Shown here: positions 40,997 to 41,390 of the stretch, piece after piece
Layout of the letters: the number at the start of each line of letters is the position of its first letter
How positions within the stretch are numbered: position 1 is the first letter of the stretch
From: Alphaproteobacteria bacterium
Lineage (GTDB): Bacteria > Pseudomonadota > Alphaproteobacteria > Rs-D84
Direction of reading: 5' to 3'
DNA length: 64,000 nucleotides
NCBI GenBank assembly: GCA_015062525.1
Contig: SUUM01000003.1
Span: forward strand, 24,012 to 88,011
Position numbers and translations under genes: made by a program
The notes under the pieces: generated by a model
The model's database searches: none
Told to the model about the DNA's origin: nothing
Seen by the model: only the letters and a program-made list of their open reading frames with translations

Positions 40997-41073
40997 CGCG
41001 GGGTAGAGCAGTCCGGTAGCTCGTCAGGCTCATAACCTGAAGGTCAGTGGTTCAAATCCATTCCCCGCAACCA
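40997..41073 (+). tRNA. Initiator tRNA-fMet (anticodon CAU)
   Basis: C1xA72 mismatch, A11:U24 pair in the D-stem, anticodon loop CTCATAA, T-loop TTCAAAT, encoded CCA. Followed by a hairpin terminator at 41081-41112. Confidence 0.85.
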
Positions 41074-41210
41074 GTTAAAACAAAAAACGTACCCCTGTGG
41101 TACGTTTTTTTGTTTTATACCTGTTGCTGGATTTGAACCAACGAAGAAGGTGGTTCAACCGCAGAAAATAGGCGCACGTGTACGCCGGTTTGCGCCCCGC
41201 GCAAAATTTT

Positions 41211-41240
41211 CAAGGTCGCTAAATCCATTCCCCGCAACCA
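41211..41240 (+). repeat. Direct repeat of the tRNA-fMet 3' end (aaggtc…aaatccattccccgcaacca), 167 bp downstream of the tRNA. An att-like remnant.
   Basis: 20/20 identity with the last 20 nt of the tRNA. Additional inverted T-arm fragments at 41130-41140 and 41148-41163. Confidence 0.8.
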
Positions 41241-41390
41241 CGAATTTTCTAAAAATACCGCGTTTGCGGTATTTTTCTTTAGAAAATTCAGTGTCTCGGC
41301 GTAGTGAAACGAAGACGGACCATAACTACAAATTTGCGCACAGCCGGCACCTTGTGCCGAGCGAGCGAAATCCACCCCCACCCCGCGATT

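Follow-up and report, generated by a model that had tools for sequence, protein, structure and literature searches.

A structured module capped by a tRNA tail behind the initiator tRNA gene of Candidatus Enterousia, and its relatives at other tRNA genes

Candidatus Enterousia are uncultured alphaproteobacteria of the gut, and it is to this group that the DNA analysed here belongs. The window, a 64,000-nucleotide (nt) stretch of contig SUUM01000003.1 (assembly GCA_015062525.1, positions 24,012 to 88,011), contains an initiator tRNA gene (tRNA-fMet, 40997–41073, plus strand) that is followed by a perfect 20-nt copy of its own 3' end. A sequence-only reading of the window took the repeats and the fragments between them for the signature of an excised or decayed integrative element. 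Instead, the 147 bp between the repeats hold a complete copy, scoring 103 bits, of a conserved structured module that recurs behind other tRNAs. We regard two things as secure: the module belongs, as a complete member, to a family of conserved, structured, tRNA-tail-capped modules and has the 20-nt repeat as its boundary, and the repeat is neither due to chance nor eroded island debris.

The initiator tRNA gene and the module behind it

The 20-mer AAATCCATTCCCCGCAACCA occurs exactly twice in the 64 kb, at 41054–41073 within the tRNA gene and at 41221–41240, with a start-to-start spacing of 167 nt; in shuffles the chance expectation for matches with up to three mismatches is 0.03. The downstream copy that the sequence-only reading had reported is thus confirmed. 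Here called the tail (plus strand), it matches the tRNA 3' end from T-loop position 57 to CCA at 20 of 20 nt, and its first 7 nt form the 3' strand of the helix P1. A tail-like sequence elsewhere (AAATCCATTACCCGCGCCCA, 28308–28327, three mismatches) spans the junction of two minus-strand coding open reading frames (ORFs) and was judged to be due to chance.

The tail closes a module of family A that extends over 41115–41240 on the plus strand and matches the whole of the family covariance model (103.1 bits, E 1e-22), being the sole covariance-model copy in the window. The order of parts is terminator, inverted T-arm copy, forward T-arm half, multi-hairpin core and tail. A strong, bidirectional terminator hairpin (41077–41115) of A-tract, GC stem and T-tract separates the tRNA from the module. 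The inverted copy of the tRNA 3' region (IR-L, 41123–41142, plus strand) consists of GTTGC, complementary to GCAAC of the tail, TGGATTT, the 5' strand of P1, and GAACCAAC, the 5' strand of P2. It is followed by a forward copy of the T-stem 5' strand and the 5' half of the T-loop (GGTGGTTCAA, 41149–41158, plus strand), which is the 3' strand of P2, a helix whose inner pairs covary. The sequence-only reading had described the T-arm fragments as inverted. This stands for the 13-mer TGGTTCAAATCCA (41048–41060), which has one perfect reverse-complement copy at 41128–41140, but not for ggtggttcaacc (41150–41161), a direct partial copy of the T-arm 5' half that forms a hairpin with the inverted copy. 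Between the forward half and the tail sits a conserved 62-nt core (41159–41220, plus strand), made up of P3 (41164–41169/41206–41211), the P4 hairpin (41171–41186), the P5 hairpin (41189–41205) and then AAGGTCGCT. The P4 loop of the window is 2 nt shorter than the GNRA form of the family; otherwise the module is complete.

With the DUF374 protein encoded next to the tRNA as query, we retrieved 80 loci of different species (given L numbers here), nearly all labelled Candidatus Enterousia or uncultured Alphaproteobacteria and of animal-gut origin, together with an identical contig from ENA (L001). Because the same sequence is present in this independent metagenome contig, found in 6 samples, the tail repeat and the module are no assembly artefact. 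Two ORFs overlap the module, one of 88 amino acids (aa) at 41115–41381 on the minus strand and one of 83 aa at 41150–41401 on the plus strand. The ENA annotation of L001 calls the former as a gene (L001 9466–9732), which has no Pfam hit; most likely the call is spurious and placed on non-coding structured DNA.

The tRNA itself is an initiator-type tRNA-Met(CAT) with encoded CCA, on which ARAGORN and Rfam RF00005 (63.9 bits) agree. Its 1:72 position is unpaired, with C1 opposite A72 (CGCGGGG...CCCCGCA-A-CCA), and is marked non-standard in the Rfam alignment; the D stem has A11:U24, an initiator mark read off the sequence, and the anticodon stem UCAGG/CCUGA (A29-U41, G30-C40, G31-C39) has two of the three canonical G-C pairs. 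By consensus match alone (10 of 12 positions), a sigma-70-like promoter, TTGACT-16-TACAAT (40956–40983, plus strand), is predicted 14 nt 5' of the gene. Upstream lie the DUF374 gene, lpxK and lpxC and, beyond lpxC, a type II secretion/type IV pilus gene set (PilO-like, T2SSE, T2SSF). Downstream follow a convergent ORF (41391–41786, minus strand; 124–131 aa, no Pfam hit, its ASCH-like label having no support from any family match), an outer-membrane beta-barrel protein, a 204-aa protein, virB4 and virB3, and then rpmJ, sufBD and ychF.

A covarying fold shared by modules at many tRNA genes

Eighteen fMet-linked family-A copies, aligned with MAFFT and no structure input, share a 31-pair consensus fold in which 95% of cells are paired, as against 27–47% in slid controls. 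Both sides have changed in 14 of the 31 pairs of this alignment, and 22 of 31 show compensatory pairs on the combined model-fitted alignment of 41 covariance-model copies; none of 500 shuffles reaches the observed values. P1 joins 5' UGGAUUU to AAAUCCA of the tail, and P2 joins GAACCAyy to rrUGGUUC. The two helices stack, so that the inverted arm rebuilds the T-arm as a duplex image whose junction lies in the T-loop. From this junction the core departs: P3 encloses the P4 hairpin (GGCR-G-AC-[GNRA]-GU-A-YGCC) and the P5 hairpin, a variable hairpin follows, and the final 13 nt (UUCCCCGCAACCA) are unpaired. Since G.U exceeds A.C, by 39 to 12 overall and by 18 to 1 in P2, the tRNA-sense strand is the folding strand. 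The P4 loops are of GNRA type (GGCA, GAAA, GGAA) and tandem G.A pairs occur in P3 and P5, features that are typical of RNA.

The fold has no counterpart among the collections searched. Rfam 15, at gathering and at permissive thresholds, found tRNAs only in the window and five other loci, all other matches being at chance level. Scanning IMG/VR with two module patterns gave nothing or unrelated coding matches, BLAST of the module against phage and plasmid collections gave no match, and literature searches on Enterousia, structured RNAs of tRNA flanks, T-loop insertions, miniature integrative elements, tycheposons and cis-mobilizable elements turned up no description of such modules. Other known identities were tried and rejected. 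ARAGORN finds no transfer-messenger RNA, permuted forms included, and the one Rfam match is at chance level and covers the T-arm alone. In a mimic of a tRNA minihelix the inverted arm would cover the acceptor strand, which it seldom does (the window has a 6-nt gap opposite UUCCCC), and a functional tRNA-like gene on the minus strand lacks acceptor pairing, the G.U/A.C asymmetry moreover favouring the plus strand. Some inverted arms contain a hammerhead-like stretch (GAUGAGAAC / GAUGAG), but of the ribozyme's CUGANGA ... GAAA core around three stems the invariant U4 is absent, a cleavage-site arrangement is likewise absent, and there is no Rfam match.

The same core is found behind many tRNA genes. 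An exact scan of public metagenomes for the P4 motif returned 38 stretches, 36 of them with module copies. Twenty-nine lie 50–270 nt 3' of a tRNA gene on the same strand; the others are at contig ends or have no tRNA within the fetched stretch. The tRNAs ahead of a family-A core are Pro(CGG), Pro(TGG), Pro(GGG), Arg(ACG), Lys(CTT), His(GTG), Ser(TGA), an elongator-type Met(CAT) and fMet, with an A-like variant behind Arg(TCT), and a single 851-kb contig has 3 copies at 3 different tRNAs. Each copy ends in the last 16 nt of its own tRNA (16/16; best match to other tRNAs at most 14), and by inspection the forward half carries that tRNA's T-stem 5' strand. Repeats are 16–21 nt long and, in most copies, spaced 157–203 nt apart irrespective of the tRNA. 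The inverted arm begins a few nt past the terminator (up to about 25 nt at some loci) at about 10 different tRNAs, and forward half and tail overlap by 1–2 nt. One core subtype can occur at different tRNAs, as in L062 (fMet) and L105 (Arg). Family B and a third type, X, found behind tRNA-Pro, have unrelated cores within the shared frame of inverted arm, forward half, core and tail. Module X behind tRNA-Pro(TGG) in L126 (10511–10680) joins the inverted arm CGCGGGACGCGGATTCGAAC to a core of roughly 100 nt, which contains a GTTGTGGCACGCCACAAC hairpin, and ends in the truncated tail TCGCCCCGACCA; a family-A module comes after it in tandem. X recurs on the reverse strand of L115, downstream of the family-A module there.

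Within the window, tRNA-Glu(CTC) (11522–11596, minus strand) presents the same tail-repeat phenomenon at a second tRNA. A 115-nt tandem array stands behind it (11222–11596; 2.8 copies, 97% identical), in which each unit comprises a 20-nt copy of the tRNA-Glu 3' end from the T-loop (GATTCCCGTTGGGGGTGCCA), trailer and terminator, with no family-A core. Template switching during replication or repair, primed by fold-back at the terminator palindrome and the T-arm quasi-palindrome, could produce such a plain tandem duplication with a T-loop start, and might have generated the modules too, with no dedicated enzyme and no function. The order of tail, terminator, inverted tail/T-arm, short loop and forward T-arm/tail is as it would predict, as are the near-identical terminators on either side of the module at some loci. 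However, a homologous, covarying core at one T-loop position behind about 10 tRNAs is left unaccounted for, as are units whose terminator differs from the native one, and the core-less forward-inverted-forward arrangements to be expected are absent from the 109 tRNA flanks examined. We consider this origin quite improbable.

Behind tRNA-Gln(TTG) (20738–21078, minus strand) the window has a long hairpin (CACTTCGCC...GGCGAAGTAGTG), then a GUCGCCCGAAG..CGAAGGGGGAC hairpin and then an 81-aa GIY-YIG gene. The second of these hairpins resembles the P5 variants of some modules. Another small GIY-YIG gene lies at 49344–49661, and GIY-YIG genes stand just upstream of tRNA-Pro(CGG) in L102 and L127. A link between these small genes and the modules was considered and rejected: such genes stand near tRNA-Gln here and 5' of tRNA-Pro at two loci, but not consistently.

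Occupants and islands at the tRNA-fMet flank

In 71 species tRNA-fMet keeps its position next to the DUF374 gene, and in 30 of these 71 Enterousia species a tail copy lies 150–300 nt downstream. The sequence-only reading had called for this comparison among relatives, and it bears the proposed hotspot out. Of the 65 species with enough sequence, 20 have family A in the 3' flank, 13 have family B, 8 a long 'C' hairpin, 9 the left end of an integrase island marked by TTTGCTACC arm repeats, 12 a recurrent end of type D and 19 none of these. The nearest relatives of the window differ from one another at this site, having family A, family B, C and B together, an integrase island or nothing. At the empty site of L013 the tRNA is followed by its terminator, directly abutted by the convergent ORF that in the window lies at 41391–41786; the gap is about 35 nt there and 317 nt in the window. 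The core of the window is 68–73% identical to that of distant species (L048, L058, L072) and 41% identical to that of near relatives (L004, L008). The terminator behind the tRNA is often unlike the terminator behind the tail, and therefore the unit brings its own tail and terminator. Tandem arrays of modules occur in L004, L072, L109 and L125. Type D (L019, L030, L032, L042, L050, L071 and others of the 12 species) begins directly 3' of tRNA-fMet with a terminator, then CAATACCTACAAAAAGTTCGAAAGTT ... GTGGCAAAAAATCGCCACTTTCGAAC, and may be the end of a further element family.

The window itself carries two units in succession. Behind the intact module lie a long terminator-like C hairpin (GAATTTTCTAAAAATACCGC / GCGGTATTTTT..AGAAAATTC, 41242–41289), common to other species and to a tRNA-Ser locus, and a decayed second unit (41290–41396, plus strand). 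Alignment to L003 identifies the latter as an L003-type family-B unit with an 86-nt internal deletion and a degenerate tail, AAATCCACCCCCACCCCGCG, at 41368–41389; from 41241 the first 64 nt, C hairpin and family-B unit together, are identical to L003. The stretch 41241–41396 fits serial insertion at the tRNA, with the outer unit decaying.

Integrases of the P4 type (Phage_integrase with Arm-DNA-bind_3) lie within 6 kb of tRNA-fMet in at least 9 species, with fragments in 4 more, and islands of 2.8–4.5 kb at this tRNA are bounded by repeats of 37–48 nt. In L018 the island is 4.5 kb long and has a 394-aa integrase (Phage_integrase and Arm-DNA-bind_3), Bro-N and AlpA-like genes and a 37-nt repeat; the repeat in L038 is 48 nt long. 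The island of L018 lies between the tRNA and the module. The module thus stands outside the island, does not belong to it and must be the older occupant of the site. In the window, tblastn with the island integrase, Bro-N and AlpA-like proteins of Enterousia gave nothing at E<=1e-3. The sequence-only reading had proposed a search for integrase remnants at 41.1–46.3 kb; the ORFs of that interval are the convergent one and those for the outer-membrane protein, the 204-aa protein, VirB4 and VirB3. Its claim of a decayed integration hotspot is upheld in part: the P4-type integrases in relatives, the 37–48-nt repeats and the decayed stretch at 41241–41396 speak for it, and the intact module in the interval against it.

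Might the module nevertheless be an ordinary attL/attR remnant, as the sequence-only reading proposed, akin to a cis-mobilizable element (CIME) left when a tyrosine-integrase island lost its interior? The direct repeat equals the 3' part of the tRNA (20 of 20 nt), starting in the T-loop, and flanks an interval that has no integration or transfer genes, as in CIMEs. Integrase islands use the same tRNA in relatives, the distal unit of the window is decayed, and it is well documented that decayed elements accrete in tandem at tRNA genes (PMC5704250; bioRxiv 10.1101/2020.12.28.424599). Independent deletions of gene-bearing elements, however, would yield heterogeneous junctions and no covariation, whereas the modules are uniform in boundaries and in size (about 160–200 bp at about 10 tRNAs) and have a covarying structure. 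Genome, metagenome, IMG/VR, phage and plasmid searches found no full-length parent element. The islands of the genus have 37–48-nt repeats and TTTGCTACC arms, the module a 20-nt repeat and no such arms, and its T-arm, uninterrupted in a tyrosine-integrase attR, is split by the core. With the module of L018 outside the island and no integrase fragment in the window, we think this explanation unlikely.

The genes further downstream bear on another proposal of the sequence-only reading, that the flank may be the eroded end of either an integrative and conjugative element (ICE) or a type IV secretion cluster (rvh) gained at the tRNA. It was suggested by virB3-virB4, 2.2–4.9 kb downstream, and is in our judgement hardly tenable. 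VirB3, VirB4 and the 204-aa protein travel with ychF, sufBD and rpmJ, housekeeping genes, in a conserved block of variable orientation. VirB4 is 77–98% identical across species, at least as conserved as LpxK (63–96%). Only some 26 of 80 species have the block within 6 kb of the tRNA, in either orientation. GC content over virB4 is 0.39–0.48; it and GC skew, one of the measures that the sequence-only reading had proposed, are the same as in the flanks. No att repeats bracket virB3-virB4, no integrase was found in the window, and neither a relaxase nor a coupling-protein family was found among the 10 ORFs scanned. The tRNA flank is a rearrangement breakpoint rather than the edge of an acquired conjugation island. 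For all its conservation within the genus, VirB4 (807 aa, 43246–45962, minus strand) departs from curated models, reaching 371 bits with TIGR00929, for which the cut-off is 643; virB3 is the sole adjacent virB gene.

Candidate insertion units and their likeness to known systems

With roughly even confidence, we read the modules as miniature, protein-less insertion units that enter at the T-loop, bring a tail and a terminator, and have a folded body recognised by an enzyme supplied in trans. The distribution of modules among Enterousia species is patchy and phylogenetically incongruent, and tandem accretion is observed; that a recombinase supplied in trans moves them, that it acts at the T-loop and that the fold is its recognition element is what we infer. 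Here, a unit of about 167 bp (replacement tail, terminator and structured body) would have become seated at the T-loop, at about positions 57–61, of the initiator tRNA gene, as one member of a lineage-restricted family whose units would build up in tandem behind many of the tRNA genes in Ca. Enterousia and related bacteria. The incoming unit would supply a new tRNA tail and terminator and leave the tRNA gene intact, while the previous tail and older units would be displaced outward and then decay, as may have happened at 41241–41396. The body would fold on the tRNA-sense strand, as RNA or single-stranded DNA, its inverted T-arm pairing in P2 with the forward half of the T-arm and in P1 with the beginning of the tail to give an image of the T-arm duplex, from which the three-hairpin core would emerge at the T-loop.

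Several results weigh against this interpretation. Neither a recombinase nor a transposase or reverse transcriptase could be linked to the modules, and excised forms and circle junctions were not seen either. A canonical tyrosine-integrase attR would keep the T-arm whole, and here the core splits it. The tail carries a T-stem allele unlike that of the resident tRNA in 7 of about 30 fMet cases, which simple site-specific insertion does not predict; the T-stem 3' strand of tRNA-fMet is unusually variable in the genus (CCATT, CCAAC, CCATC, CCACT and CCACA, with an acceptor change, in L002–L081), and the mismatch may be the trace of repeated replacement of the last 20 nt of the tRNA by incoming units. 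How three tRNA-derived pieces are re-matched to a new tRNA lacks an explanation under insertion, and an ungapped test finds the inverted arm specific to its own tRNA in no more than about 7 of 10 tRNA types. The paralogous cores at different tRNAs of the 851-kb contig are well diverged, which recent jumping would explain less well than long vertical residence and perhaps a host function. A promoter scan gave no promoter-like site ahead of the module, which stands behind a strong terminator.

The main rival to the insertion of mobile units, with which it is not fully exclusive, is a resident family of non-coding RNA genes with a host function. These would have arisen by duplication of tRNA 3' ends, kept tail and terminator for 3' processing or stability, and been inherited mostly vertically. 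Strong covariation, GNRA loops, tandem G.A pairs and the excess of G.U over A.C on the tRNA strand are all as such a family would have them, as are a terminator behind each copy and diverged paralogues at different tRNAs of one genome. It accords poorly with the patchy occurrence among near relatives and the alternative occupants at one site, with module similarity that is incongruent with species similarity, and with decayed and tandemly arrayed copies. That the same tRNA-derived frame encloses unrelated cores, at least two of them (A and B), is also hard to reconcile with it, as are the absence of any Rfam match and of a promoter-like site and the terminator directly upstream. We take it seriously as the less probable account.

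A bolder version of the insertion reading, which we put forward tentatively and think rather doubtful, would make the modules a new class of tRNA-gene-targeting element or RNA whose choice of target is written in nucleic acid, the inverted T-arm copy serving as internal guide. By pairing on both sides of the T-loop junction, the inverted T-arm would re-create the target duplex around a catalytic or recognition core, and the same core could be re-addressed to any tRNA while rebuilding that tRNA's tail. A guide of another kind would be at work in a miniature element of the IS200/IS605 insertion-sequence type (a palindrome-associated transposable element) or an omega-RNA-like scaffold, placed 3' of TTCGAA/TTCAA with the tail as flanking guide. 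The core does stand directly after GGTTCGAA / GGTTCAA and directly before the tail, and one strand is rich in hairpins, followed by 16–21 nt identical to the target and then a terminator. Yet the overlap of forward half and tail by 1–2 nt means that the junction is not seamless, the inverted arm pairs with the would-be guide, and unrelated cores (A, B and X) stand at one position. No Rfam match was found, omega-RNA-type families included, and no TnpA, TnpB or IscB was noticed in about 1.2 Mb of fetched loci, which were not scanned systematically for proteins. Such an origin seems very improbable.

If mobile, the modules would be the smallest known insertion elements at tRNA sites and a natural case of one structured core re-addressed to many tRNA genes, with implications for the seeding of genomic islands by tRNA genes in streamlined genomes and perhaps for programmable recombination. 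If resident RNAs, they would be an RNA family that has escaped annotation while occupying a sizeable fraction of the tRNA loci of an approximately 1-Mb genome. In practice, gene callers put spurious ORFs on them, such as the 88-aa gene in ENA, and a partial-tRNA repeat in these genomes should not be taken for an integrase scar until it has been checked.

Several known systems resemble the modules in part. In integron attC sites and the attP(+) site of CTX phage, an imperfect inverted repeat folded on one strand re-creates a duplex recombination target, and structure is conserved over sequence. The modules would be analogous in this respect, with no IntI or Xer link observed; their target would be the tRNA T-arm and a three-hairpin core stands at the junction. 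An attC identity was rejected: the R''/R' boxes (R'' RYYYAAC...R' GTTRRRY) are missing, polarity is reversed (GTTGC 5', GCAAC 3'), and there is neither an adjacent IntI/attI nor other integron context. The bridge RNA of IS110 and the omega-RNA of IS605 TnpB have a structured non-coding body of about 100–180 nt at the element end, with variable segments that match the target and with versions for different targets. Here too the likeness would be one of analogy: the modules have no adjacent recombinase or nuclease gene, their arms are 13–17 nt long and complementary to each other instead of being placed in open internal loops, and the target duplication is 16–21 nt. Bacterial miniature inverted-repeat transposable elements and the palindromic elements of Rickettsia are likewise small, protein-less, hairpin-rich repeats in reduced alphaproteobacterial genomes; unlike them, the modules are strictly tRNA-linked, in one orientation, flanked by terminators and provided with target-derived ends.

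The closest parallels in genomic setting come from integrase-borne elements. Accretion of CIMEs and ICEs shares with the modules direct repeats of the tRNA 3' end, a lack of recombination genes, and newer insertions proximal to the tRNA with decayed ones distal (PMC5704250). CIMEs are heterogeneous deletion products, usually kilobases long (PMC5704250), whereas the modules are uniform (about 160–200 bp), have a conserved covarying fold and come in versions for about 10 tRNAs. Prochlorococcus tycheposons, with integrases, cargo and attachment sites of about 40 nt, share the streamlined genome, islands at several tRNA genes (among them Met-CAT, Ser-TGA and types of Pro and Arg), together with partial tRNA repeats, integration in series and degenerate remnants (bioRxiv 10.1101/2020.12.28.424599); the modules differ in being protein-less, with repeats of 16–21 nt and a structured body. 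The P4-type integrase islands of Enterousia itself (L018, L037, L064 and others) use the same tRNA-fMet, on the same side, and restore its 3' end as the modules do, but with a 37–48-nt repeat from the anticodon stem/variable loop, TTTGCTACC arms, a length of at least 2.8 kb and genes for an integrase, an AlpA-like protein and Bro-N.

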